Below the pieces are notes generated by a model. The model had not been told where the DNA came from. It worked only from the letters and a program-made list of their open reading frames with translations, and searched no databases. A program made the position numbers and the translations under genes. From the NCBI GenBank assembly GCA_013239625.1, contig MU054338.1, forward strand, positions 744,001-808,000: a stretch of DNA of 64,000 nt, in the 5' to 3' direction. Below, piece after piece: positions 37,040-58,230 of the stretch (position 1 is its first letter; every line of letters starts with the position of its first letter). Source of the stretch: Lama guanicoe. Taxonomy: Eukaryota.

Positions 37040-37068
37040 ATGAACAACTCGGGCGCCGACGAGATCGG
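37040..37068 (+). CDS. DAZAP1: DAZAP1 exon 1
   Basis: gccgccATG MNNSGADEI|gtgagg. Confidence 0.95.
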
Positions 37069-40000
37069 GTGAGGACGCGCCGGCCCGCGCCGCCGCCTCG
37101 GCCGGCCCCCGCCCGGACCCGCCCGGCCCGTCAAGGTCACGCCGCGGGGCCGCGCCGGGCCGGCGGCCGGGGAGCCGGGGGCCGCGACCGGCCGGGGGCT
37201 TCTGGGAGTCCGGGCGCCCCGCCGCCTCATGGCTGGGAACCCCGAACGGGATCTGGGGAGCCCTGCGAGAGTCCATACGCCCCGCCGCCTCGTGGCTGGT
37301 GACCCTCAGCAGGAACTGGGGGAGTCTGGAGAGTCCTGGGAGTCCGGACGCCCCACCGCCTCGTAGCCGGGGACCCCGAGCGGGAACCGGGGGTTCCGGG
37401 GAGTCCTGAGGGCCTGGGAGCCCCGCTCCCTCGTGGCTGGGGACCCCCAGTGGGAACCGGGGGAATCTGGGGAGTCCTGAGGGTTCTGGCGCCCCGCTGC
37501 CTCGTGGCCTGGACCCTGAGCGAGAACCAGGGGATCTGGGGAGTCCTGGGGTCCGGACGTCTCGCCTTCCTGGCCAGGGACCCAGAGCGGGAACTTGTGG
37601 GTCAAGGGGGTGTCCTGGGGGCCCACGCGATTTCCTGCCTGAGGGAGACCCCACCACTGCCGTCCCCGAATTTCCCGCTGGGGGACCCTCGATCGGGAAC
37701 CTGCGGGCTCCGGGGTACCCTGTCCTCCCCTGCACCTGGATTTCCTGCTGGGGGACCCGGAAGCATCCCGGTGCCGTATTTCTCGGGGACTTCGAACAAT
37801 AACTTAGGGGGTCCGGGGCGCCCCCAGGCCTTGCGCGAACTTGGCAGGTCGGCGGATGTGGCGCGCCTGCTGACGGGTTCCATTTCTGCTGCTGCCCAAC
37901 TTCTCCCGGCCGGTACTCCCAGCGACAGCCCCCTCCTCCATTCACTCTGTCCTCCCAAGTGAAGGTTTGCAAACCGAAGGCCGAGGGCCAAGGTTACGGG
38001 GGCCGGTCCCAGGTCTGCATCCGGAGCACTCCGCGGGGTCCACCATCTCAGCGCACCCGAGTCCCCTGATGGGGCATCTGCAACTGCTGTTTTTATGTTG
38101 CTAGAGCTTCTTCCTGCTCAGCCCCCACCGCACCCTTATGGGTGAGTTTAAGATAAAGAGAAAGGGAAACTCCAGTGGTGGACAGAATAGGCTCCTTTCC
38201 GAGGTCTTTCTCTTTGGTGCAGCTATTAGCGAGAGAACGTTTGTTACAGCTAAGTTTTCCCTGTTAATTATAGTCTTCCCTAATTCTAAATGAGCTGGAG
38301 ATGAGAGAAGTGATCCCAGAGGAGCCAGAGAACCCAATTCTGCCCCAGTCTCGGGGTTTGGTCTAGTTTTCTTTGTGGAGACTGTCTTACAGCATCAGAG
38401 TAATTTTACAGTTAAATTCTTCCACGAAGATGGCACAACTGCCTGGGCTTGGTTTCCGTGGCCTTGTGTACATTTCTCAGTGCGCTTAGCTTTGAACAGA
38501 TGCCGTGTTTACAAAATGCTTGATTTGGTGAGTAAGTCATTGTTTGCTGGTGGGTGGCCGGCCTCCCTGGGCCCCTGCCTGGCTCCAGCTGCAGGTTACA
38601 CCAGAAGACATAAAACACATTTTGTGAGCTCACCCCTCCAAAACCCCCACACCATTGAGAGGACTGGGAGGAAGGCATTTAGCTCCTAGCCTGGTTTGTT
38701 TTAGGAGACAGGTCCAGGCACTAGAAGTCTGAGTTGTGTGTTAGATAAAGGAAAAGTTGCAGCATTTCCAAGGGGAAACTAGGAAGTGAGGGGAAAGAGA
38801 GCTCCGCCCAAAGGGGACGGAATCTTAGGGGGAGTTAGCGCCCCCCCCCGAGATGGGGACCTGTCTTTCTGGGGAGCCTTTCAAGAGGCAGGTTCCTTTG
38901 GGCCTGGGCTGCCTTTCCCCTCGCCTGGGAAGGAAGGGAGCCTCCAGGTCCACAAGGCTGCCCCTCGGTGTGTCCTCAAGGAGACAGTCCTCTGTTGCCT
39001 GGCATTTCACCCCAACTTGTACTGACTCTGGGAGATGGTGGAGCCAGGATCTGAGGCTGGGTCTGGAGGGTCCCACCCTCAGCGCTGGAGCCCCAGGCAA
39101 CTTGGGGAGGCCGTGAAGCAGGTAGCAGAACCAGGATCTGGATGAGGGACCTGCCTGGCTACATTCCCCTCCCCACCCTGGCGAATGTACCCAGATTAGC
39201 TTAGTTTTAAAGTTGTCTCAGGTGTCCCAGAAACTTTTTATTGCTTTGCCCAAAAGCATCGACTGGTTTCCATTTTATTAGGAGCCTTGTTTGTGTGTGA
39301 TGTGGGAAGTCCAGGCCCGCCCTGTAGTTGAGCTTGTGTGGGCTCCATGGTGGCCCTCTCGGGGTTCCTAGGAGAGACCACAGTTGCTGGCTTCAGGGCC
39401 GTCACCATGCGGGAGTGTGTGGTGTGCAGATGAGGCGATAGCCAGCGGTACTGGGCCGTGATGGTGGGGGTAATCTCTGACGACACCCACCTGCACCTCA
39501 CAGCTCCTTTGCTTTGGGGTCTGGTCACCCCCCCCCTCCCCTGGTGGAGACCTATGTCCTCAGGAAGTGTGTGGATGCGGGGGGGCATCCCACTGGCAGG
39601 GTGTGCTTTGGAGTTTGAGTCTCTGAGGAAGAGGTTCTTGCCCCTTCTCTTTTGTGGTGTCTTGGCTGTAGCAGAGCTGCCTCGGTGATCAGCGTGGACT
39701 CTGAGTGGAGAACAGGGTTGGCGAGATCACTCCTTCCTTTAACGGAGAGAGGAGGTATTTACGTATTTAACGGACTGGGAATTGAACCCAGGACCTCGTG
39801 CGGGCTAAGCACGTGCTCTACCACTGAGCTAAAGCACCCCCCAGACCACTGCTTTTAGATTACGTTTCAGCGCCCTCGGTATCACAGTCTCCACTGAAGC
39901 AGAGCCAGGGCGGGGCTTGAGGGCAGGGGTCAATGGGAGCAGCTGTCACATGTGACCTCGCGGAATCCACGTGCAGATGTCCTCAGTCCTGGGCCACCTG

Positions 40001-43000: not shown

Positions 43001-46000
43001 CTTTTCCACAGCAAGCCCTCTGTTTCCGTGCCGAAGGCCTGGCCAGAGCAGCAGTCCCTTGGTGGCACCAGCCAGCCTCAGGGCCCTTCTGTTGTGGGCC
43101 CTCCTGGGCGTCAGGTCCACTCCCTGGGGTCATGAGGAGGTAGGAGGAGGCCTGGCCAGATTTCGAGAGTGTGTAGGAGACTGGACGTGAAGTTAGTGAG
43201 GCCCAAGTGTGAGCCTCCCCTGCTGCCTGGTGGGTTCAGCCCCTGGAACTGGTCCTTACAGAGCGCCTTCCAGGGCCCTGGGAGTTTGGCCTCAGGCAGG
43301 CGTGTGGGGCCACCTCATGGGGTCTGTCCTCGGGTGCAGGGCAGGGCACCCTGTCTGGCGGCTCTCTCGGTGGCTTGGGGCTCAGTGCACCTGGCCCTGA
43401 GGGCATTTTATCTTCTAGCTGAAGGAGGTGTGGTTAGCTGTGCAGGGGGCCTGGGCCCCCCGCACTGGCATCTGATGACCCACTGGTTTGCACCAGGAGC
43501 CCCGAGGGTGACGCTGCTGTGTCCCTTTTCCGGGGGAAGCAGGCAGGAGGGAGGGCTGCCGCCCCATCGCTGGCCCTGGGGTGCGGGGCCTGCGTCCCAG
43601 CTGCGAGGGGTGCCAGAGTGCACGTGGGTGCGGTCCCGAGTGGGGCTGGGACAGCCACAGCGCACGGGGCTCCCCCGCTCACCTGGGCTCAAAGAGTTGC
43701 AGGCAGTGGGAGGGCTCCGTGGGCTGCAGAGACAGCGGAAGGTGTCCTTTCAAACATGCTGGTCCATCTGCCTGAAAGGCCACCCTGCTGAGTCTGCTCC
43801 AGGGACCTTCCCAGGGATTCATGTGTCCTTACTCACCACCACATGGCGGGTATCTGAGGCCTAGCCCTCAGGCCCCCACCCGCACTGTCCTAGCTTGCTA
43901 TGTGCCATCCCAGACCTGTTCCCAGAGTGGTCCGGGGGCCTGCCCCGTAGTCTTGCGCTGGAGCTGGCGTGGTTGGGGGCGCCCGTCGTTCTCTTGCAGG
44001 ACCCCATTTTGTTACGATGACAAAGGTCGGCATGCCTGTGCGATTTTGGACATGATAACCCTCACTTCCCACTGTTTTGGCACATCTTGGAGTCATTTTT
44101 CACATCTTCTGCTGGCAAGGCCTGGCCAGGCGATAACCAAGGCGGGCACATCACGGCCCTGCCCTAGACCTGAGTCCTCCGGGACCGCTGTCGGATGGGC
44201 CAGATGGGCGGCACTTGGGCAGAACCGCCTTGGTCCTCAACATTTTCTTGTTGAATTGCAGGAAGCTGTTCGTGGGCGGCCTTGACTGGAGTACCACCCA
44301 AGGTAGGTGCGGATGGGCTATGGGCTGGTGACCTTGGTCTTCAAGTTGTGTGAATTTGTTTTTTAATTCTCAACTGATTTGATTGGTTTCTGGGATGCAA
44401 CATTTGATCAGGAGTTGGCTGGGACAGAGAGTGGTCCTTGGCCTTGGAGCTGGATCTTGTCCTAATGTTTCACGGCAGAGTTGAGGGAGGACGTCAGGGG
44501 CAGGCTCCCAGCTCAGGGTGGAGGCAGAGGACTGGTGGTGTGTGGAGGGTGCAGTGAGGTGGGCTAGGGGTTGACAAGGGGCGAGGGGCAGGTGTCGCTG
44601 AGTTCCGACCCTCAGAGGAAGAAATTTGTGATTGGCGGCCTTGGGAGGCCTTGGAAGTCATCCTCCTGCCCCTTCCTTTGGCTGGCTGGCCCCTCCCCTC
44701 ATGCAGCCTTCCCCTTCCAGCCGCGCCCCCAGCAACTGATTGGCCAGTTTAAAGGTTCCTGGTTCCCCACCTTCCAGGCCAGGCTGAGGGACCAGGGGAG
44801 CATTTGTGTGCGCGCTGGCTGTGACCCGTCTTAACCCTGTGGCACGTTTGTCTGTCCCGCTTTCCGAGCAGAGACCCTGCGCAGCTACTTCTCCCAGTAT
44901 GGAGAGGTCGTGGACTGCGTGATCATGAAGGACAAGACCACCAACCAGTCTCGAGGCTTTGGGTTTGTCAAATTCAAAGACCCCAACTGCGTGGGCACGG
45001 TGCTGGCCAGCAGACCGCACACCCTTGATGGCCGAAACGTGAGTGTCCATACCTGAACGAGGCTCCCACCGCCCTTCCGTGTGTCCTTCCTCTGCTTCCC
45101 TCTGTCCCCATGCTCTGGTGGCGTCTGTGTCATGGACTGCTTCCCAGTGGGGTTGGTTGAGGAGGGTCAAGGCTTGGGCGTGGGTGGGGTGTGGACGGAA
45201 AGTGTGCACCTGGCTGCTGCCACTCACCCCTGTTTCTGGGGGAAACAGCCTCCTGTTCACAACTGGCTCCTTTGAAACTTCCACAGATCGACCCAAAGCC
45301 ATGTACACCTCGGGGGATGCAGCCGGAGAGGACGCGGCCGAAGGAAGGATGGGTAAGGGGCTGGGGGCTCCTCCCCCTGGGGGCTTCCACAGCCACCATT
45401 TGGAGGAAATAGGTGCCTTTGGTCTGGTGTTTTTGCTCATTAAAATGGAGAGGGACAGAAGGTCTTCTAGTTCCACGTTGCAGCGGCTGAGAATTGCTCA
45501 GATTTGTTCAGCATTGAAAGTTTTTTTATCTCGTAGCCAAGAAGATTCTCATCAGTCTACCTTAAAAATAACAGCTTACACCCGTTTGTCGTCAGGAACC
45601 TTCCATTTCATCCTCACTGCCTGCTCTCCACTGGCCCAGCTGCTCAGGCGCCCTCTCTACCCCAACTCAGCTCTCCTTGGTGACCCAGCTGAGCTCGGTT
45701 CCCCACCCCTCCACGTGTCCCGCTCTGTGGACTGCTCCCCCCAGGGCTGTGTCCCACCGCCGGGTCCCTGAGCAACTAAGCTCACAGCCCAGCTTGGGGA
45801 TTCTCTGTGAGCTGTGTGTGGCACCTGCTGCTCAGCCAGCTGGAGCAGGGCCCTCCCACAGCCCCCACCCCGGCACCTAAAGTGAGCCGGGTGGGAGGCT
45901 GTTGAGGTGCTCGTCTTGGCCCACCACGCAGGTCTGATCAGCCGGCTGGGCCTGGGAACCTGCATTCCTAGCGGATTCCCAGCTGCTGCTGGTGGACAGG

Positions 46001-49000
46001 AGCCTCAGCCCAAGTTTTTATTTTCCCAGCTTCCTGTTAGAAAAATAGGGATACAGGGAAATGGGAAGAGCAGTGAACCCCTGAATACACTGCCCAGATG
46101 CGCCAGTTGTCAGCGTCAGTAATCTGTATAGGACCCTGGATGCCAAATCCACAGACGCTCAAGTCCCTCATACGACATCATGTAGCATTTGCATGTGATC
46201 TGCACACGTCCTCCCGTGTACTTTAAACCACCTCTAGGTGACTTATAAGACCTAACACAGTGTAAGTGCTATGCAGGTGGTTAGCTGGCATGTGGCAAAT
46301 CCAAGTTTTGCTTTTTGGAACTTTGTGGAATAGTTTTCTGCGTATTTTTGATCCACAGTTGAAACCAGGGACGCAGAACCTGTCAGGGGGCCAGCGTGCT
46401 TATCCTCATCTTGGTCTGCACACACTGCTGCTGACAGCACACCCTCCTGCCCCATCCCCACACCCCGGGCACCCGCTAGGCTTATTCGCAGGGCGCTCAC
46501 AGCTCTTCTGTTCAGACCTGGCTGGAGCGAGGCTTGTGTCCTGTGGCATTCGCCCTCCAGTTGCTCAGGGGAGGGCAGGGGAGGCCCAGTAACCTGCACA
46601 CCCTGGTGGTCTTGAGCCCCCTGTGCCCCTGTGAACCTGTCCCCGCCCAAGTGTAGCCTCTGAATCCCTAGTGGAGTCCCTTGGGAGTCTTTGGGGGCAG
46701 GAGGAGGCAGGAAAGGGGAACAGTCAGGTAAGTGATCTTCAGGTACCAGAACTTTCCACAGTCCTGAAAGCGAGCCTCGTTGCCAGTTTGAGTTGTGGAG
46801 GCTGCCCTGATTTCCGTGATTCTCCTGAAACCCTGGGTTTACACTGCAGAGCTCTGAAGTCCGCAGCCGTGTGACCGCCCATCCCCGGGCACAGGGCGCG
46901 GCAGGGCTGGTGGGGCCCCATGGCCTGTGCAGGGAGGCAGCACGCTGCCGGCGCTGCTGCTTTGCTTCTCTTTGGACCTGCTGGATTCTTGGCGTGTTCC
47001 AGTCTGACTTTCAGAGGCTACATCGTACGCACTGTGGGGAGTGTTCTGAGGGTTTCCCATGTGAGCTAACCATTTTCTTCTTCTTGAAACAGCAGAAAGG
47101 ACCCAGGAGCGATAACAGTAAATCAAATAAGATATTTGTCGGTGGAATTCCCCACAATTGTGGTGAGACAGAGCTCAGGGAATACTTCAAGAAATTCGGA
47201 GTGGTGAGTCCTTCCCGCGCCAGCAGCATGGCTGGTCAGGGCGGGAGTGGCGTAGCCCTGTGTGCACGGGAAGGTGCGGCCCGGCCGCCTCTCCTCTAGT
47301 CCCGGTCCTCCCCTGACAAGGCGGGCCAGAGCCGTCCTTCCTCTTCATGGCCGTCTGCCAGCCCAGGAGAATAGTTAGTGGCTTTTCTAGGAAAATGTCA
47401 GTTGGACAGACGGACTTCCTGGAAGGCGCTCTGGTTGCTTGTGGCCACCATGGTGGAAACCCCTAGATGGTACTTGGGACTACGGGTGTGTCTGGGCCGA
47501 GGAGCTAGCCTGCTATCCCTCGGCACAGGGGGGAATAACCTATATCAGGTCCACCTGGGGCCTTGGCTGACTGCCTCCCCTTCCCCCAAAGGACCTGAGG
47601 ATGGTTTTCTTTTCTGGAAGAGGATAAAATCCTTTAGAATCTTACAGGGCTCAGTTACTTGGGGTCACACGGGGAACTCAGTTCTTGTGGGGCAGACAAA
47701 ACTAGGCTGCAGCTAGGGAGCCGGCAGGTGTGGGAGGCTGTGCGGTCATCTGAGGCGAAGGCGCGAGGTCACCCAGGCTCCTGCCGGGTCATGCTCTCGC
47801 TGCCGTCAGATGGCACATGTGCAGGCCTCGGGCCTGGCCAGGAATTAGGAGCGTGGGGGCCAGGGGTGCTGTCCCTGGGAGGTCCTGGCCCCCACAGTGT
47901 CCCATGCCCGCCCTGGGAGCACCCATCCAGCCTGCTCACGCCCCACGGACCTCAGACCCCACAGACACAGCCTTTTGCTGCGGGACTTCCTGGGTTCTGG
48001 AGACACTCAAGCAGCCGTGGGCTCGGGAGTTTGGTTGTAGCCAGAGGTGGCTGGGGCGCCTGTGGACCTGGGTCCTCAGACGCCGTCTCTCTTCCAGGTC
48101 ACAGAAGTGGTCATGATCTACGACGCGGAGAAGCAGCGGCCTCGAGGTAAAAGAGACGGAGTTTGTCCTCGACCCCCCCTCAGATGGCAAACTATCTCAC
48201 AATTAGGTGGTGGTTGTAGCGAGCATTGCCTCAGAAAAGGGTGATTTGGAGACCAACCATTAAAGTGTAGGCCCTTCTTACGCGGCCCCCAGCCTGTCTG
48301 CTTCCCAAGGTCAGGCAGTACTGTCTTTTTTTTCCCCCTCCAAGCTCACTCTTTTAAAGTTTTTACACCTTGACATGAATTTCAACATGGTTTCTGTTTT
48401 TAAGTGTGTCCTGAAAGATTAGTTGTTCTTTTAAATCGTGAACGTCCTCCCTTACGCCCATCTCCTGTTTTAAGTTCACACCAGTGAAGTCAGGAGTCTC
48501 ATTTCACGTCGTCAGGCTAGGTCTGCCCCAGCTCAGCTCGAACGTGGACTTTCTTTGATCCATCTCATGCTTTTTTCTTACTTTGGTATTCTTTCTCCCC
48601 TGAGTCCGTGGGGCAGGCGGGAGGAGGGGTGAGGAGCCCCCTCAGCACATCCTGGCCAGAGTCCCCGAGCTGCCCACACTTGCACGTCTAAATGGGTTTG
48701 CGGGGCTGGGGCACCGGCACCCAATCTCCGTGCCCCTTTTTTTTCTTTTTTTTTTTTTTGGTGTGTGTGTGCGCGGCTGCTGCTCCTTGTCCCCGCCTGT
48801 ATGTTTTGGTTCATGAACCGCTTTTGGACCGGCCATGTGAGCTGATCTGCCATCTGGGCTCCAAGCGGCCCCCCGCCCCGTCGAGGCACCCCGAGCGCTG
48901 AGCCGGCGCCGCCCGCAGCATGCGCCCGCCATGCTGGAGAATAGTTTGCCATTTGAACCTCATCTCCTCTTACTCCATGATTAAGTAACATATCCTCACT

Positions 49001-52000
49001 TCATGTTGATTAAGCTGTTTAAGTCTTAGTCTTAATTTTAACGTAGATGTACATGCTTAGTGACGTACTTAAGTGTTTCATAGTAAAGTACAGTAACGTT
49101 AAGTAAGTTGTTTTTCCTTTTCTCTCTGTGAATTGTTTGNNNNNNNNNNNNNNNNNNNNNNNNNNNNNNNNNNNNNNNNNNNNNNNNNNNNNNNNNNNNN
49201 NNNNNNNNNNNNNNNNNNNNNNNNNNNNNNNNNNNNNNNNNNNNNNNNNNNNNNNNNNNNNNNNNNNNNNNNGTTCCGCTTCCTCAGTGGTGATGTCGCC
49301 TCTGACAGACAGACGCATCCCTAGAGGCCCCGCCCCGGGGCTCCTTCCCCACGACTCACCGCCTCTTGTGCTATAAGGACCGCGAGCCCTGTGGCTTCAG
49401 ACACTCCTGCACTTGGAGAAAACGTTCACTTTTTAACATGCCGCTCAGCACCCATGTTGCGTTCCACCACCTGCCTCCGATCTTGTGACACCTCAGGACG
49501 CGGGGACACTGAGGCTGCTCTTAGATCCCTTGGTCGGCCCCCCAAGGCCCTCGCCCCGGGCCGGGGGCAGGCCGAGCTGCCTGGGCGGGTTCAGGCAGGA
49601 AGAGCTGGCAGGGAGAGCGCTTTGGGCTTGACCCTTGGGCGGCATTGAGTGGGGCTCAGACACCCGCTTGCCCCTGAGTCCCCAGCACTGGGCGAGCGAG
49701 GGCGGGGCCAGGCCGAGAGCAGGACTGGTTGGCGGGCGTCCCAGAAGACTCCCTCCTGCCTCCTCACCTTCCGAGTCTTCTCCAGAGCCTCTGCCTCACC
49801 CTCCCCATCCCAGTCTATCTCCCCTCATTCCCGCTCCCACCTCCTTGAGTCTGTTCTGCAGCCAAGACTTGCTCCGTCTCTCATGCCCCGTGCAGGGTCC
49901 TTGTGGTGGGTGTGCAGGAGTCACCCCTCACCCCCACGAGCCTGTCCCCCCTGCCTTCTCCCACCTCCTTCCTTCACCGCGGTTTTGCCAATAATGTTTG
50001 CACATGGCCCCAAGGACTGGCCCGCATCCCTCTTTCCTTGGTCCCAGAGGCCTGGGAATGCTGCTCCTCCTGGTCCCTCCCCAGCTGCCTGCAATCTCTG
50101 CATCTGCCTCCTGGGATGCTCTGTGCCCCGCACCCCTCCCCCATGCCTGTCTCCAGCCCCTCTCAGGCCCTCGGCCCTTCCCCTGGCCTGTCTTTTGTTC
50201 TAGGGGGTCTTCCGGCAGCTGTCTGCCACGAGAGTCCTTTTGTGCTCAGAGCAGTTGGGCCCCGGGGAGCCAGTGCAGCAGACTGAGGACCGGACAGGCC
50301 AAGCTAGCCAGGCGGTCGTGCTCACCCAGACCAGCAAACTTCGTTTATACTGCACTTTCTTGTGTTTGGGAAATGCTAAATTGTTTTTCCCTTGGAAATT
50401 CTCTTTTTGATGACGTTGTGCCTCTTGCTCTTGCTGCCGACAGCAGTGTTTGACCTGCTGGAACCCGTTGTGGCCTGTATCTCTGTGTATTTATGTAGAC
50501 ACGAACAGATAGACACCTGTATGCATATGTACCTTACCTTGGCAGGACTCCTTGGGCTTACCCAACAGCGTTGGGCAAGCTTGGCGAGGCTCTCCCTGTG
50601 GTAGAGACCGTACCTCTGTTAGCGCTAGGCCGTAGACGGCGGCTGTCAGCACGAGCTGCAGAGCAATTGCAAGCCGAGGGGGAGGACCCTGGGTTTCAGA
50701 AAAGCGGAGACGCACCCACAACACACACCCAGTTGGGCAGGGCTCAGCCCAGCCCCTGCCTGCTGGACCCCGCGGGCACCTCGCCCCTCCGTCCGGCGGC
50801 CGCGCGCTCGGACGCACCCCAGCAGATCCGGGGTGGCGCACACGGGCTTCGCTGAAACCCTCGGTCGATCCCTCGGCCGGCCCTGATACTGNNNNNNNNN
50901 NNNNNNNNNNNNNNNNNNNNNNNNNNNNNNNNNNNNNNNNNNNNNNNNNNNNNNNNNNNNNNNNNNNNNNNNNNNNNNNNNNNNNNNNNNNNNNNNNNNN
51001 NNNNNNNNNNNNNNNNNNNNNNNNNNNNNNNNNNNNNNNNNNNNNNNNNNNNNNNNNNNNNNNNNNNNNNNNNNNNNNNNNNNNNNNAACTTAGGGATTT
51101 CACTGGAAATGAAAATCCCTTATCAGGAGGAGGGCCGGGCTAGTCGTCCTGGGACCCTAAGCTGTGGGTTGGGCCCGGTTCTCCCGGAACCGGCTTTCCA
51201 TCTGGAGCCCCACCTGGGGGCGGGCATGGGGTGGGGGCCCCAGGGTGGGGGGGGCTGGCCTCCAGTGAAGTCACAGGTTGCCTCAGGCTTGGTTTCAGTG
51301 ACCACTCCTTCAGACGTGTGTCCCTTCCCCGATTGTCCTGTGGGGGCCGGTAACGGGCCAGCCGCGAACCTTGGGAGAACAGGGTCTGTGTAAAACTGAA
51401 GGCAACGTAAACACCCTGAAGGATTGGTTGTTAATTGGGTCACTTACTGTGGACTCGGTACCAACCACATGCTCCTGGTAGTCCTTAACTCCATGCAGTC
51501 AAGTGACCTCTGGTTGTTTCATCTTCATACTGTGTTGCTCCACAGAGGGAAACTCAGAAGTGGCCCGACCCTCATTTTCCCCAGCCCCAGGGAGCTTTTT
51601 GAGTTTGAACATAGCTCAAAAATGAGTAACTGGTGGGAACTGTGCAGTTTGCCAGGGCTGAAGGTCCCCCTTTCACAGGGTTCCCACCTCGGGCCCCGAG
51701 ACCTGCTCAGCACACCCAGCCCTTCTGACAGGCCCCGGCCGACTGGCCGGCTCCAGTGGGGAGGAATCTGGTTCCAGTGTGTCCTGTGCGTCCGCCCCTG
51801 GAGGGCAGTGAGATGTAGTCTCAGGCTTCACCAGTTCCACTTGAACCAGACTGTGCAGGAGACAGCTGCACTTTTAGTTTTAGGCAGTCATTGAAGCTTT
51901 TAGTTTAAAATTAGCACGTGGATTTCAAGGACGCGTGCAGTTACAAACACAAAGTTCAGAGGAGCCCGCGTCCCATGTTTTAAGGCACTGTGACGTTCAC

Positions 52001-55000
52001 AGCCCAGCTCCTGCAGGGGCAAGAGGCCTGCTAAGCCACCGGTCTGCCCTGGCCCGGTTTTATGGGTCCCAGCAGTGTCTGGGGCTGGGGGCGCACCTCC
52101 AGCGAGGGGTGCACGTGTGGAGGCCGGCTTCCGCCCCCGGGGTGCGAGCTGGAGTGCAAGGAGTGACATCTGCGATCCCGTAGGAAGGGGAGAGGTGGTT
52201 TTGTTTTGTTTTTTTTCCTTAAAGCGGGGCTGCTTTGCTTTGTTAAGCAGGAACCAAATTCCCTTAAGGGAAGTGTGGGAAGACTCGTTAATTTGAGTTC
52301 TTTGAAATGGTCCCCATCCTGCTGTTGCACCACCCTGAGCTGGCGGGGATTTTGTTCCTGTCTGTGGAGCATCCTTGGGTCATTGGAAGGTGGGGTCCCT
52401 GTGCCTCTGTCCCCCGCCTGTCTTCTCTCCCAGGCAGGGGTTTAGGGCAGAACACCTGGTGCTAGGCTCACAAGATGGGGCCCCAAGGACGACTCCAAGT
52501 GGGTCCTTGTCTCTTTCTGCTCATTCACACTTATCCTACCAGCCAGAAACACTTGGGGTCCCGGCAGGCCTGGAACGGGGGTCTCTGCTGTCAGACTGCC
52601 TGCACAGGGAAGGCTTTGGGGGGTGAGCGGCGGCCAGGCCTCCCCGCGCCGGCTCCTGACACCTGACACGTCCGAGAGAGGGAGGGCCCGGGCTGCTGAC
52701 CTAACACAGTATGAAGATTGCTTACTGATTCAAATGTCCATTTTATTGCATGTTTGTTTACTTTTTGTTAGATGTAATGTAAGATCCTCTTACCACATCC
52801 ATTTCCTCTGACATTGTTTTGAGTTAATTGAGATTCTTTAAGCGTTAGCCTGGGGAAGGTAAGTCTTTATCTTCCATTAGACATTTTAAATAAAAACCTA
52901 AGTAAACCAGCTGTGTTTCTCAGGTATGAGCTGAAGGTGCAGCAGGGGTGGGTCTGGAGAGGGCCGGCTTGTCTGGCGGCCTGGGCTGCTCCCAGCCCAG
53001 GTCCCTCCCCGCGGCCGGAGGTGCCTGTGATGGGGCGATCCCAGTCTCTGGGGCCACTTAGCTGGATGGAAGGCCCTGGTCCGCACAGAGGGCTCTGGGG
53101 GTCCTGGTCCCCAGGCCTGCCCCCCGTGGGCAGGGCTTTGCTTGTCTTACAGTTGGATCTGTTGTACCTGAGAAACATTTTTTAAACAAAAAAAATTTTT
53201 TAAATTTTTTTTAAGAAAAAAGTTAATGGCCTAAATAAGGTTTATAGTTAAGTATTTAGTTTTAAGTTGTAATAAGATGCTAAGTTTAGTTGTAAGTTAC
53301 TTGAGGGTGTGTCTGAAGGGATGGGGTCCGAGACCCCCGGCATCTCCCTGAACCAGAGCTCGGTTTGTCTAGGTGGAAGTTAAGCGGGCCGAGCCTCGGG
53401 ACAGCAAAAGCCAAGCGCCAGGACAGCCGGGTGCCAGCCAGTGGGGCAGCCGGGTCGTGCCCAGTGCCGCCAATGGCTGGGCAGGCCAGCCCCCGCCCAC
53501 GTGGCAGCAAGGATACGGCCCACAAGGTAAGGCTCGTACCCGCAGCCAGCCCGGGTAGCTGCGGGGCCGGGGCAGGGCTCCTGGTGCTCGTGCAGGCCAT
53601 GTCGGGGCTCCCCGTCCGGCCCGGAGGTGCACGCTCGTCCCAGGAGCCGGTGCCTGGCCCTTCCTGCAGGCCTGCAGTGGGTACTGGCATTCACTGCCAA
53701 TTCACTGCCCACGGAGGGAGACAGCAAGGCTGTCCTTGGGCACCAGGTCCATCTGGAGAGTCGAGTGACCCTTGGTGGTCATCGTGGCCACAGAGCTGCA
53801 GTGGGTGTCCTCCCTGAGGGCCAGGCTGGTCTGAGTGAGCTCTGGGTCCTTTCCCGGTGCTGGCCTGTGGTTGGGGGCTGCTGAGGCAGTGCCTCCAGGT
53901 AGGGAGTATCAGGGAGACCGTCCCCTGCACTGAGTATTGTGCCCACCCAGAAGAGGGGTTGGGAGTGGCCAGGGCCTCAGATCAGATCCTCAGGGGAAGA
54001 GTGGGCTGCTCCCTGGGCCAGAAGGAAGCTCAGAGTCCTGCTGCCTCTTGGGCCCTTAGGGTCTTTTCCGGCTCTCTGGGCTGTGGGTCCTCCATGTGGC
54101 ATTGGCAGAGCTTTTGAGGACAGCTCTGCAGGAGGGTTGGGGTGACCAGGGGTCCCAGGACAGGAGCCGGAGCCTCCACCCGCTTTAGAACCCCAAGAAG
54201 GGCCAGCATCCAGGGAGGGCACCAAGGAGGCCAGGCAGGCCTGACTGCTCCCAGGGCACTGGCACCCCTGCACCCGCAGAGCCGTCTCTGCCCGGCTTGG
54301 GGCTTTCTCCTGGGTCTTTCCAGAGCTGGCTTTTAAAATACGTGTTTTATTGCAAAAAAAAAAAAAAAAAAAACTGCAGCTGTAGGAAACCATCTAATGA
54401 GACCTGAGGCCCTCACATCCACCAGCAGGTGAAAAACTAGCATTTGACTGTGGAGTCTGGCCCCAGGTTCCCACCTCCCAACCTGAGATCCCACTCGTGC
54501 ATCTGAGTCCCTGATCTGTGGGTGCACCTGGAATGTGTCAGGACCCCAGGTCCTGCGGCAGGGCGGGGGGTCCCCAGTCTGCAGTGTGGTGCCGACTGGG
54601 CACCCACCCCACCTGAACCCTGTGTTTCCTGTGCAGGAATGTGGGTGCCGGCAGGACAGGCGATCGGTGAGTCCTGCCCCAGAAAAGGGGAGAAGGGAAT
54701 CTGAAACGGGCAGCCTGCGTCTAGCAGGTGGGGCTGTGAGCCGAGCTCTGGTCCTCACCCTGCGTCCTGTGTTCCAGGTGGCTACGGTCCGCCTCCTGCG
54801 GGAAGAGGAGCTCCCCCCCCACCCCCGCCGTTCACCTCTTACATCGTGTCCACCCCTCCTGGAGGGTTCCCACCTCCTCAGGGCTTCCCCCAGGGCTACG
54901 GCGCCCCGCCGCAGTTCAGTAAGTGCCCGCGGCCCTTCTGGGGTTCTGAGCCTCCAGCCTGGCACCCTTCAACCTCTCTGGGGGGGCGCGGCGTGGCCGT

Positions 55001-57515
55001 GCTGCACAGAAGTGTGCTCTGTCAGCAGGCGGGCCTGTGAGGCGTCCCAGCCTCGGGACCCGGTCTCTGTGATTCAGCCGAAGGACTTGATTCACTTTCT
55101 CTGCTCAGCTTTCTCATGATGGCTGGCGGCAGGCACCCCCGGAAGGTGGGCCACCCCTTCCTTCCCAGCACCCTGGGTAGATGGGGACAGCCACGCACGG
55201 TGACTGGGTTCCTGTTGAGGGGTGCGGGGTGACAGGTGGTCACTGCAGCGTGTCACTGGGCCAGCCCTCCTCTCTCAGTCCTTGGGGCGATGAGCTCACT
55301 TGGCCCCACAGGGTTTGGTCTACCCGACTTTGTGGGCTCAGTGGCACCTGGTGGCCGGTGACCCAGGACTGGGCCTACAGGCTGCTTGATGGCCATGTGG
55401 CATGGACAGGGTGTGCCCACTCCGGGCCCAGACTGCAGCTGGTTTTACTTCTGACAGGGTAGAGGGTGGCCATGACCCTGCCTGCGCGTTGGCTCTGACC
55501 CTGTCCTCGGCGAGCACGGGGTTGGGGGGTGTTGAGGGAGTGTTTCCCTGCAGCTGCCGCCCACGTAAACCCCCGTCTCCTGCCAGGCTGGTGTGGGTCA
55601 GTCTCTGCCCAGTGAGGGCCGTTTCTTTGGGCAGAGCTGCGAGTGTAGTTACAGTCCGGCCTGTGGACGTCCTCGAGGCCTGGCCCTTGGATGGAAATGG
55701 TCTGGGTGGCTCCCGGCAGGCTCGGCCATGGGCCGCACCATGTCTGTGTCTATCTCTCCTGTCTGTCTGTAGGTTTTGGCTACGGGCCTCCACCTCCCCC
55801 ACCGGATCAGTTTGCCCCTCCGGGGGTCCCCCCTCCACCGGCCACTCCGGGGGCTGCACCTTTGGCCTTCCCACCACCTCCGTCTCAGGCCGCCCCTGAC
55901 ATGAGCAAGCCGCCAACCGCCCAGCCTGACTTCCCGTACAGTCAGTATGGTGAGTGGCCTCCCTCCCGGCATGCCCGCGCAGGGTTGTCGGACAGCTCAC
56001 GCGACCTGGGCTCAGCAGAGCTCAGACAGGCGCTGGGGCACTGGCATGGAAGAGCGGTGATGGCGTGGCAGGAGTCCAGGGCCAGCAGGTTTGGGGGCCT
56101 GGCAGGCTCTGCTGCCCTGGGTGCCTGGGTTTGCCGAGTGCAGAGCACAGAGCAGGCGTCGGGGCCCACGGCGTTGGCTTTATGCTTCACTGCAGGTGCT
56201 GGTCCAGTAGGTGCTAGGGCCCGGGTGGGGGAGCTCCTTCGGGGACAGGGTGGGCCTGAAGGTCTCCTGGCACTGAGCAGTTGCTCCCAGCACCACCACA
56301 TCCCCTGCTCTTGCTCCCCTGGGGACTTGGCCGGCCATTGTCACTGAGTATGTGGGTTCTCGCCCCAGCTGGAGCAGGACATGTCGCTGGCCCCCAGTGG
56401 GGGTATGCCCCGCCCTGCCCCCCACCCCCCCACCGCTTCTCTGCCAAGGCGGCCTGGGGCAGTCACCCTGGTCTCGTCTCTTGCCAGGCCTGGGTACCTA
56501 TTCTCCAGACCCGCCAGGCTTCGGCCCACACTTTGTTTACACCCTTATGGTCGGGCTGAGCAGTGATGTGGCCTAGGTAGGTGGCGCCTTCTCCATGGTC
56601 CCCACGCCTGCGCCCAAGCCACGGACATCGCCTCCCCTGCCGTCCTGGGCGGGGGTGGGCCCGGCGGTGCCCTCGGGGACGGGCCCTTGCCAGGGTGAGG
56701 ATCTCAACCGGCCAGAACCCCGCAGGCCCCAGACCTCTGCTTTCTCAGGACAACACTCAGGCCCAGTGGGAATCTGGGCCCTGGGACGGGCCGTCTGCAC
56801 AGCGTGTGGTCCAGGTGGGCCTCCTGTGCCCTCTGAGGTGCGGGGTCTGGTCCTCCTAAGAGGAGGGCCCTGCCCCCTCCCCATACCAGTTGGTTTCCTG
56901 GAAGTCGCCAGCCTCAGGGCCAAGCTCCGTGCCTCGGGCTGCTCTGTAGTTCTTTCTTAAATCCTGAAAGCTGTGCTGAGTCCACCCTGCATTCCACTTG
57001 AACACAAACTCTCTAGAAACCTGGTGTCCACCACAGTAGGCCAGGTGATCTGTGTCTCCAAGCTCCAAGGCCTCTCCAGCTGCTAGGATCTGCTGCTAGG
57101 TCCCTGGCCCTGAGCCGGAATGAGTGGGGAAGGGACCGAGAACAGACAGGACAGACCAGTGGGTCCTTGAGGTCTCGGAGCTGCTTTTCTTTCTGTGCGA
57201 GATGCCGTCCAGGGCCCTGCCAGGGCTCCCAGGCGGGCTTTCCGCCCGCCAGGTCCTAGCCCCATCCTGAGCCAGGGCCCAGGCCATAGGTGCCCATGGG
57301 AGCGGGAGCCCCGGCCCCAGCTCACTGGGTTCTTCCCTGCAGGGTACGGACAGGACTTGGCCAGCTTCGGACAGGGCTTCTCAGACCCCAGCCAGCAGCC
57401 CCCCTCCTACGGAGGCCCCTCGGTGCCAGGCTCAGGGGGTCCCCCCGCCGGCGGAAGTGGCTTTGGACGCGGTCAGAACCACAATGTGCAAGGATTCCAC
57501 CCCTACCGACGCTAG
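37040..57515 (+). CDS. DAZAP1: DAZ-associated protein 1 (two RRMs, Pro-rich C-terminus), spliced CDS, ~406 aa; exon 7 missing (N gap)
   Basis: join(37040-37068,44262-44302,44872-45038,45287-45352,47093-47203,48098-48146,[exon 7 in gap],53373-53526,54637-54666,54778-54918,55773-55949,57343-57515); [22 protein letters not shown], C-terminal GRGQNHNVQGFHPYRR. Confidence 0.97.
37195..37620. repeat. Degenerate GC-rich minisatellite, ~6 copies of a ~63-71 bp unit
   Basis: Recurring ggagtcc...gccccgccgcctcgtggctgggracccyragcgggaacyggggg; cores at 37220, 37283, 37354, 37424, 37495, 37563. Confidence 0.85.
39744..39842 (-). mobile_element. tRNA-derived SINE (camelid Vic-1-like)
   Basis: ctgggaattgaacccaggacctcgtgcgggctaagcacgtgctctaccactgagcta; A and B boxes on the minus strand. 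Confidence 0.8.
44262..44302 (+). CDS. DAZAP1: DAZAP1 exon 2
   Basis: KLFVGGLDWSTTQ. Confidence 0.95.
44872..45038 (+). CDS. DAZAP1: DAZAP1 exon 3
   Basis: [34 protein letters not shown]...DGRN. Confidence 0.96.
45287..45352 (+). CDS. DAZAP1: DAZAP1 exon 4
   Basis: IDPKPCTPRGMQPERTRPKEGW. Confidence 0.96.
46120..46390. mobile_element. MER2 (Tigger-derived) DNA transposon fossil
   Basis: ggatgccaaatccacagacgctcaagtccctcata...tcctcccgtgtactttaaaccacctctagg...tttttgatccacagttg. Confidence 0.8.
47093..47203 (+). CDS. DAZAP1: DAZAP1 exon 5 (NAGNAG acceptor)
   Basis: QKGPRSDNSKSNKIFVGGIPHNCGETELREYFKKFGV. Confidence 0.96.
48098..48146 (+). CDS. DAZAP1: DAZAP1 exon 6
   Basis: VTEVVMIYDAEKQRPR. 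Confidence 0.96.
49140..49272. other. Assembly gap (N run); other gaps at 50892-51087, 57664-57951, 61123-61265
   Basis: N runs. Confidence 1.
53373..53526 (+). CDS. DAZAP1: DAZAP1 exon 8
   Basis: VEVKRAEPRDSK...QQGYGPQ. Confidence 0.96.
54637..54666 (+). CDS. DAZAP1: DAZAP1 exon 9
   Basis: MWVPAGQAI. Confidence 0.93.
54778..54918 (+). CDS. DAZAP1: DAZAP1 exon 10
   Basis: GYGPPPAGRGAPPPPPPF...GAPPQF. Confidence 0.95.
55773..55949 (+). CDS. DAZAP1: DAZAP1 exon 11
   Basis: FGYGPPPPPPDQF...DFPYSQY. Confidence 0.95.
56488..56576 (+). CDS. DAZAP1: DAZAP1 alternative C-terminal cassette exon (short isoform)
   Basis: cag|LGTYSPDPPGFGPHFVYTLMVGLSSDVA*|gtaggt; resembles the alternative C-terminus of the short human isoform as recalled. 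Confidence 0.8.
57343..57515 (+). CDS. DAZAP1: DAZAP1 last coding exon
   Basis: YGQDLASFGQGF...GFHPYRR*. Confidence 0.96.
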
Positions 57516-58230
57516 CTGCGGGAGCCACGCGGACATCAGGCGGCTGAGACCCAGGATTCGAACTTGTGAACTCGTGACAATCACAGACTTGGGCAGAGAT
57601 ACCGACTCAACCAGGGGGGCGGGGGGGCGAGAGGCTTTGGAAGCGGCTGTGGGTATCTGGACTNNNNNNNNNNNNNNNNNNNNNNNNNNNNNNNNNNNNN
57701 NNNNNNNNNNNNNNNNNNNNNNNNNNNNNNNNNNNNNNNNNNNNNNNNNNNNNNNNNNNNNNNNNNNNNNNNNNNNNNNNNNNNNNNNNNNNNNNNNNNN
57801 NNNNNNNNNNNNNNNGAGNNNNNNNNNNNNNNNNNNNNNNNNNNNNNNNNNNNNNNNNNNNNNNNNNNNNNNNNNNNNNNNNNNNNNNNNNNNNNNNNNN
57901 NNNNNNNNNNNNNNNNNNNNNNNNNNNNNNNNNNNNNNNNNNNNNNNNNNNCGGCACTGGTGGAGGTGAGGGGCATTTTTAGTCCCTCACTCCTGGCTTT
58001 GAGGGTTGGGACTCTTTGGTCCAGAAACTCTGGGAGCTTGATGAAGAAGTCCTACTGAGTGTGTTTTGTTTTTGTTTATTCCTTGCTTTTGTCGACTGGC
58101 GTGCCTGGCAGTGTCTGCAGGCGCGCTGTGGGGGCCGCGCCGCCTGCGTCTGGCCCGGCGTGCAGGACCAGGAGGCCCGCATCCCATCGCCCGCACACGC
58201 GGCATCGGGGCGTCCCCGCTGAGCAGTTTG

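Follow-up and report, generated by a model that had tools for sequence, protein, structure and literature searches.

The question raised by this locus is whether intron 7 of DAZAP1 contains a poison exon, a non-coding cassette exon the inclusion of which would lead to NMD. The initial annotation had proposed such an exon of 87 nt, here referred to as exon X, which we analysed within the window, that is, the whole 64-kb stretch of DNA under study. Our preferred answer, which we consider moderately probable, is that exon X is a real, amniote-conserved non-coding cassette exon of DAZAP1 intron 7 whose inclusion would direct the transcript to NMD. The window carries genes that we take to be, in this order, PWWP3A-, NDUFS7-, GAMT-, DAZAP1- and RPS15-like, and DAZAP1 is located on the plus strand. 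The peptides of exons 5 and 8 matched PDB 2DGS (DAZ-associated protein 1), and these matches, the exon layout and the human exon table support the earlier assignment of the gene as DAZAP1 and of the intron as number 7. The following layout was obtained.

37040-37068, 44262-44302, 44872-45038, 45287-45352 and 47093-47203, plus strand: DAZAP1 coding exons before exon 6
48098..48146, plus strand: DAZAP1 exon 6, 49 nt, ends in phase 1
50892..51087, plus strand: assembly gap (N), most likely holding DAZAP1 exon 7 (83 nt, ends in phase 0)
53373..53526, plus strand: DAZAP1 exon 8, 154 nt, starts in phase 0 (GTG GAA GTT, VEVKRAEP)
54637-54666, 54778-54918 and 55773-55949, plus strand: DAZAP1 exons after exon 8; the last-exon reading frame ends at 57516

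A tandem acceptor (CAG CAG) at exon 5 (47093-47096) permits a one-residue variant of the protein. Further downstream, an alternative DAZAP1 exon at 56488-56576 has its stop at its last base (LGTY...SSDVA); the SSDVA C-terminus was found in 3 of the 134 named DAZAP1 proteins among the matches listed, and the exon therefore represents an annotated shorter C-terminus that should escape NMD. Elsewhere in the window, a divergent pair of tRNA genes, tRNA-Phe(GAA) at 18203-18275 on the minus strand and tRNA-Asn(GTT) at 18405-18480 on the plus strand, was located just upstream of NDUFS7, while a tRNA-Ala prediction at 39767-39843 resembles a SINE of tRNA origin. Two direct repeats between GAMT and DAZAP1 (30331-30519 and 33623-33811; 94% identical, 3.3 kb apart) could be the LTR pair of a short element resembling an endogenous retrovirus.

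The effect of exon X on the reading frame is set by the phase in which exon 7 ends. Human spacing scaled to the window placed exon 7 at ∼50970, within the gap. Along 2DGS, residue 36 is the last to match the exon 5 peptide and residue 81 the first to match that of exon 8, and the 44 codons between them correspond to 49 + 83 nt. Among the matches listed, 102 of the 104 named orthologues with both anchors had 28 residues between EKQRPR and VEVK, and the human table gives DAZAP1 exons of 49, 83 and 154 nt (PMC8361881). The claim that the upstream exon ends in phase 0 was thus right, even though that exon is hidden in the gap, and the junction falls after residue 182. Because exon 7 ends in phase 0, the ATG-TAA of exon X is read as Met-stop, a premature stop; the ATG is incidental, being only the first in-frame codon. 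Two named Camelus models lack exon 7 and contain intron-derived peptides instead, which showed 89% and 94% amino-acid identity to pieces of intron in the window (49861-49914 and 50249-50356). These identities mark the window as camelid DNA. As intron peptides take the place of the missing exon, those protein records are mis-modelled. A short hairpin (51093-51120, -8.8 kcal/mol) lies just past the gap, probably close behind the exon 7 donor.

The signals that define exon X are listed below.

52723..52729, plus strand: branch-point-like TACTGAT, its A ∼44 nt upstream of exon X, within a 53-nt AG-free zone
52752..52771, plus strand: U-rich pyrimidine tract and TAG acceptor; the tract TGTTTGTTTACTTTTTGTTAG ends at 52771
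52772..52858, plus strand: exon X, candidate non-coding cassette exon, 87 nt, starts ATG TAA
52856..52864, plus strand: 5' splice site AAG/GTAAGT of exon X, the strongest donor scored in the window
52889..52894, plus strand: AATAAA, possible intronic poly(A) signal, with TGTA upstream at 52773 and 52778 and a GU/U-rich tract downstream at 52911-52924

Each element that the initial annotation had named (TACTGAT, the U-rich tract, the ATG TAA start, AAG/GTAAGT with the intron beginning at 52859, and AATAAA at 52889) was present where it had been placed. The AG-free zone upstream of exon X contains three branch-like motifs, and the exon has stops in every frame (52775, 52820 and 52829; 52809 and 52839; 52780, 52825 and 52846). 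Exon X lies in an intron between coding exons and is flanked by GT-AG sites of its own, as is required of a poison exon. Its in-frame stop ends 81 nt before its donor, exceeding the 50-nt distance used for NMD, and four further junctions are found downstream; the predicted premature stop 81 nt before the junction is thereby supported by the measured distance as well as by the phase. The island around exon X has a GC content of 0.34 vs 0.54 for the intron. An Rfam scan of 47000-55000 gave one chance-level match outside exon X (16.4 bits vs a cut-off of 71) and no snoRNA or miRNA match. The local fold of 52690-52930 revealed no local structure (z = -0.32), no tandem repeats were detected in 47000-58000, and a search of the window allowing up to 3 mismatches identified no second copy of the end of exon X.

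To observe how far these signals exceed chance, a splice-site matrix was trained on the window's own true splice sites (36 donors and 36 acceptors), with leave-one-out scores used for comparison. The donor of exon X scored 13.1 bits, above all 36 true donors. AG/GTAAGT occurs twice on the plus strand and not at all on the minus strand of the 64 kb, against a shuffle mean of 0.55. The other occurrence, at 46728 in DAZAP1 intron 4, has GC-average surroundings and possible acceptors 159-235 nt upstream. The acceptor of exon X scored 0.97, above only 2 of the 36 true acceptors, on a matrix whose training acceptors are C-rich, and exon X fell outside the top 45 AG..GT pairs (1,274 paired donors). 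Its tract holds 12 U in 17 nt, a density reached by none of the 36 true acceptors, and its 53-nt AG-free zone is equalled by four of them. Taken together, the tract, the AG-free zone and a GGTAAGT donor were found at 1 of 2,263 YAG sites on the plus strand and 0 of 2,501 on the minus strand. When the AT-rich island was shuffled 20,000 times with its dinucleotides preserved, 1 shuffle showed the combination under strict and 137 under lenient criteria; the thresholds of this combined test were taken from exon X itself, and it is hence post hoc.

The AATAAA motif suggests a different use of the same acceptor, in which exon X would be an alternative last exon, spliced at 52772 and cleaved ∼15-25 nt after the hexamer, yielding a stable mRNA and a 183-residue two-RRM protein without the proline-rich tail. 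The two TGTA motifs upstream and the GU/U-rich tract downstream would fit such an event; the hexamer on which the intronic polyA outcome raised earlier depends is frequent in AT-rich DNA of this kind, arising in 2,000 of the 20,000 island shuffles (10%). A perfect U1 site near a poly(A) signal should suppress cleavage. Such a site lies 30 nt upstream of AATAAA and should act against cleavage here (see also PMC6097662), and the GU-rich tract is at the same time an arm of the helix H2 described below. Truncated proteins ending in GKK-M were sought among the named proteins of the matches listed and were found in 0 of 114 and 0 of 134. The first of these counts covered 120 of 257 matches, and both were made on named proteins (6 of the 120, and 6 more in the exon 8 search, were unnamed). 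None of the 134 named proteins ends at this position, which is also expected if the product of exon X is non-coding. We regard a last exon as very improbable.

Conservation was gauged by annotated proteins as a proxy, with exon 8 as the query. A named gene model of the horned lizard Phrynosoma platyrhinos (JD844_034043) reads EKQRPR-GDRLSQSLGK-VEVKRAEP, and its inserted peptide resembles the following part of exon X.

52830..52858, plus strand: 3' end of exon X, frame-0 reading DSLSVSLGK, matching lizard DRLSQSLGK

The last nine codons of exon X are identical to the lizard peptide at 7 of 9 residues, and the match ends exactly at the donor; at the nucleotide level at least 5 of the 27 positions differ. 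Across all 6,566 GT sites (3,790 on the plus and 2,776 on the minus strand), the next-best matches reached 4/9 and 5/9, respectively, and the 7/9 match was unique among ∼128,000 nine-residue stretches of the window. The other 12 non-standard junction peptides matched exon X at no more than 2/9. The possibility that the lizard peptide is a diverged end of exon 7 was rejected, as the exon 7 tail matches exon X at 1/9. The lizard peptide stands directly before exon 8 in 1 of the 122 named proteins with the exon 8 anchor; a targeted search revealed no second model with an exon X-derived peptide in its 22 matches, and tblastn of 133 named proteins against introns 6-7 returned only the two Camelus intron pieces and low-complexity noise. 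The evidence of conservation from annotated proteins covers the last 29 nt of exon X and its donor, matched in one lizard model. It appears from this comparison that a lizard has the 3' end and donor of exon X between its exons 6 and 8, which supports exon X as a real exon-like element.

The lizard model lacks exon 7 and is labelled 'hypothetical'; it is probably the product of a predictor bridging a gap. This leaves room for a reading, which we judge improbable, that the island is conserved for a regulatory or structural role within the intron (protein sites, helix arms), its splice signals being unused, and that the lizard model merely picked the conserved GT to bridge the missing exon. The low acceptor score and the absence of a catalogue entry agree with it, as does the resemblance of the lizard model to the two Camelus models, which use unrelated pieces of intron. 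The perfect donor, the U-rich tract, the branch motif and the AG-free zone, all at exon spacing, argue against it, and so does a conserved block that ends exactly at the donor. Taken literally, the structure of the lizard model would instead make only the last 26-29 nt of exon X an in-frame coding exon that replaces exon 7 (exon 6, short X, exon 8), resulting in a DAZAP1 whose second RRM is broken. Splicing to the AG at 52831 would leave 26 nt that continue the frame of exon 6, but this AG scores -6.8 and has no tract; in the lizard the acceptor is placed another 3 nt upstream, a position at which the window lacks an AG, and the arrangement is seen in 1 of 122 models. This is the least probable of the readings weighed here, and we give it next to no weight.

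The cassette exon that we prefer is bracketed by long-range complementary sequences, whose arms are as follows.

51521..51536, plus strand: helix H1, 5' arm, a 16-nt perfect complement of 52703-52718, 1,166 nt apart
52703..52718, plus strand: helix H1, 3' arm, stops 4 nt short of the branch-point motif and takes in two upstream AGs
52914..52926, plus strand: helix H2, 5' arm, covers a cryptic donor CAG/GTATGA (52924) and the GU-rich element after AATAAA
53165..53177, plus strand: helix H2, 3' arm

Among the perfect inverted repeats of introns 6-7, H1 (16 bp, ∼-24 kcal/mol) and H2 (13 bp, extending to ∼18, also ∼-24 kcal/mol) are the longest, and exon X lies between them without being looped out by either. 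A repeat of at least 16 arose in 9 of 1,000 block shuffles; since the whole window has 4 such repeats within 6 kb, H1 by itself is not unique. Of 5,634 placements tried, 3 had an arm of 13 nt or more within 80 nt on each side, and all 3 were at exon X; none of the 5,604 placements elsewhere and none of the 28 true exons did so, in a test that is again post hoc. A partition-function fold of 51088-53400 gave mean pair probabilities of 0.92 and 0.99, which on 2.3 kb is a weak argument. If formed, H1 would take ∼1.2 kb out of the distance from exon 7 to the branch point and mask two upstream AGs, and H2 would mask the cryptic donor and the GU-rich tract behind AATAAA; the two helices probably aid the definition of exon X. 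A helix that would loop exon X out (51895/52883) was considered and found weak, at -6.5 kcal/mol.

Intron 6 showed structural features of its own. A third long-range helix pairs 48184-48195 with 48941-48952 (alternative partner 48836-48856) and reaches ∼-28 kcal/mol with extension. It starts 38 nt past the exon 6 donor, has two competing partners and could bear on exon 7 skipping. An AT-rich island at 48940-49139 (GC 0.32) contains TAA/GTAAGT at 49103, with no good upstream acceptor found, and its DAZAP1 motifs, 3 in 200 nt, are the densest measured.

Skipping of exon 7 is a second route by which the DAZAP1 reading frame can be lost. In five named isoforms (Perognathus, platypus, Varanus, Sphaerodactylus and Sceloporus), the nine residues before VEVK correspond to exon 6 in another frame, as seen by eye from TTRRSSGLE in the window and MMRRSRGLE in the isoform, and this indicates that exon 7 is skipped in them. 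These exon 6-exon 8 isoforms were counted as clusters, with the number of species judged from member counts only. Skipping yields Gly-Ser-stop in exon 8. A human table of NMD isoform pairs has a single DAZAP1 row, which concerns exon 7 (PMC8361881, Supplementary Table 1, row 1807); the row gives no direction, and judging from the frame the event is skipping.

DAZAP1, a splicing regulator of the hnRNP type, is required for growth and spermatogenesis (PMC3834821), acts as a downstream intronic activator (PMC13751310) and is recurrently mutated in mantle cell lymphoma (bioRxiv 686956). We found no literature on a DAZAP1 poison exon, or on a helix-bracketed RNA-structure switch in its intron 7; a prior annotation (VastDB, GENCODE) is possible. 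Exon X was absent from the human and mouse NMD and poison-exon supplements of PMC6547761, PMC8091538 (novel-event table), PMC11188260, PMC10123112 and PMC11632617, and the PMC10123112 supplements name DAZAP1 in 4 places, always as regulator or knockdown. DAZAP1 motifs numbered 1 in exon X and 0 in the next 100 nt, the window background being 3.2 per kb. As there is no enrichment downstream of exon X, autoregulation is without direct support, and control of DAZAP1 by its own protein through exon X may be suggested by analogy only.

Decoys are conserved non-coding exons found in retained introns above 1 kb (PMC6097662), and exon X is possibly also a retention decoy. Were it mainly a decoy, its U1- and U2AF-bound sites would engage the terminal splice sites non-productively, leading to nuclear detention of intron 7 (or of exon 7 together with its introns) or to the skipping of exon 7, and inclusion would be a leak. 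This account is compatible with a poison exon and would explain the absence of exon X from inclusion catalogues. A detained intron of DAZAP1 that shows a strong ZFR eCLIP signal and is retained more when ZFR is absent has been reported (bioRxiv 2022.06.15.495552; the text does not number the intron), human intron 7, between chr19:1,425,960 and 1,428,842 (hg38), measures 2,881 nt (PMC8361881), and both the listed exon 7 event and the five isoforms that join exon 6 to exon 8 are in line with a decoy. On the other hand, the main text of PMC6097662 does not mention DAZAP1 and places most non-coding cassettes in non-retained introns, and the helices are placed to bridge, not to block. We consider a predominantly decoy function unlikely. 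Equally tentative is the idea of intron 7 as a conserved RNA-structure switch, in which H1 and H2 would be read by a double-strand binder (e.g. ZFR) that chooses between full splicing, exon X inclusion (NMD), exon 7 skipping (NMD) and nuclear detention.

Under the preferred cassette reading, exon X would be mostly skipped and at times spliced between exons 7 and 8. A ribosome on an mRNA containing exon X would add one Met after residue 182 and then stop, and with the next junction 81 nt away and four more downstream the mRNA would be degraded by NMD. Inclusion of exon X and skipping of exon 7 would thus form two unproductive routes capping DAZAP1 output, and H1 and H2, by shortening the flanking introns and hiding nearby cryptic sites, would favour recognition of exon X. 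We infer the splicing of exon X, NMD, helix formation and the action of any regulator, be it DAZAP1 itself or ZFR.

Exon X can be compared to a wider class, the conserved poison cassette exons known from SR and hnRNP genes. As in TRA2B (PMC13751310) and in the AS-NMD of hnRNP A2/B1 (PMC3091714), it is non-coding, belongs to an RNA-binding-protein gene, carries a stop more than 50 nt before the junction and appears to be conserved in sequence; in its case inclusion, NMD response and feedback by the encoded protein are putative, and the sequence is only moderately conserved (no more than 81% over 27 nt when set against the lizard) and not demonstrably ultraconserved. Of the 394 conserved cryptic intronic exons described by Margasyuk et al. 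(2024; PMC11632617), 73% are poison, and exon X resembles these in being unannotated-looking, apparently conserved, ∼90 nt long (their median is 94) and poison on insertion. It is, however, not among the 394, and wherever their table names DAZAP1 (9 of 9 places) it does so as a regulator. With the decoy exons of SF3B1, OGT and ARGLU1 (PMC6097662) it shares apparent conservation, lack of coding capacity, an intron above 1 kb and a gene with a reported detained intron, whereas intron 7 retention, U2AF binding and splice-site dependence are only putative for exon X. The exon 7 event of PMC8361881 concerns the same gene, the adjoining exon and the same predicted outcome, a premature stop, but exon X represents the gain of a non-coding exon and not the loss of an 83-nt coding one.

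Most relatives of DAZAP1 have a documented unproductive-splicing brake, and for DAZAP1 we found none described. The ZFR-dependent detained intron that has been reported might be explained, at the level of sequence, by H1 and H2. A conserved poison or decoy exon in intron 7 would be a precise handle on DAZAP1 dosage control and, if the structural switch holds true, helix disruption or antisense masking of exon X would tune DAZAP1 levels.
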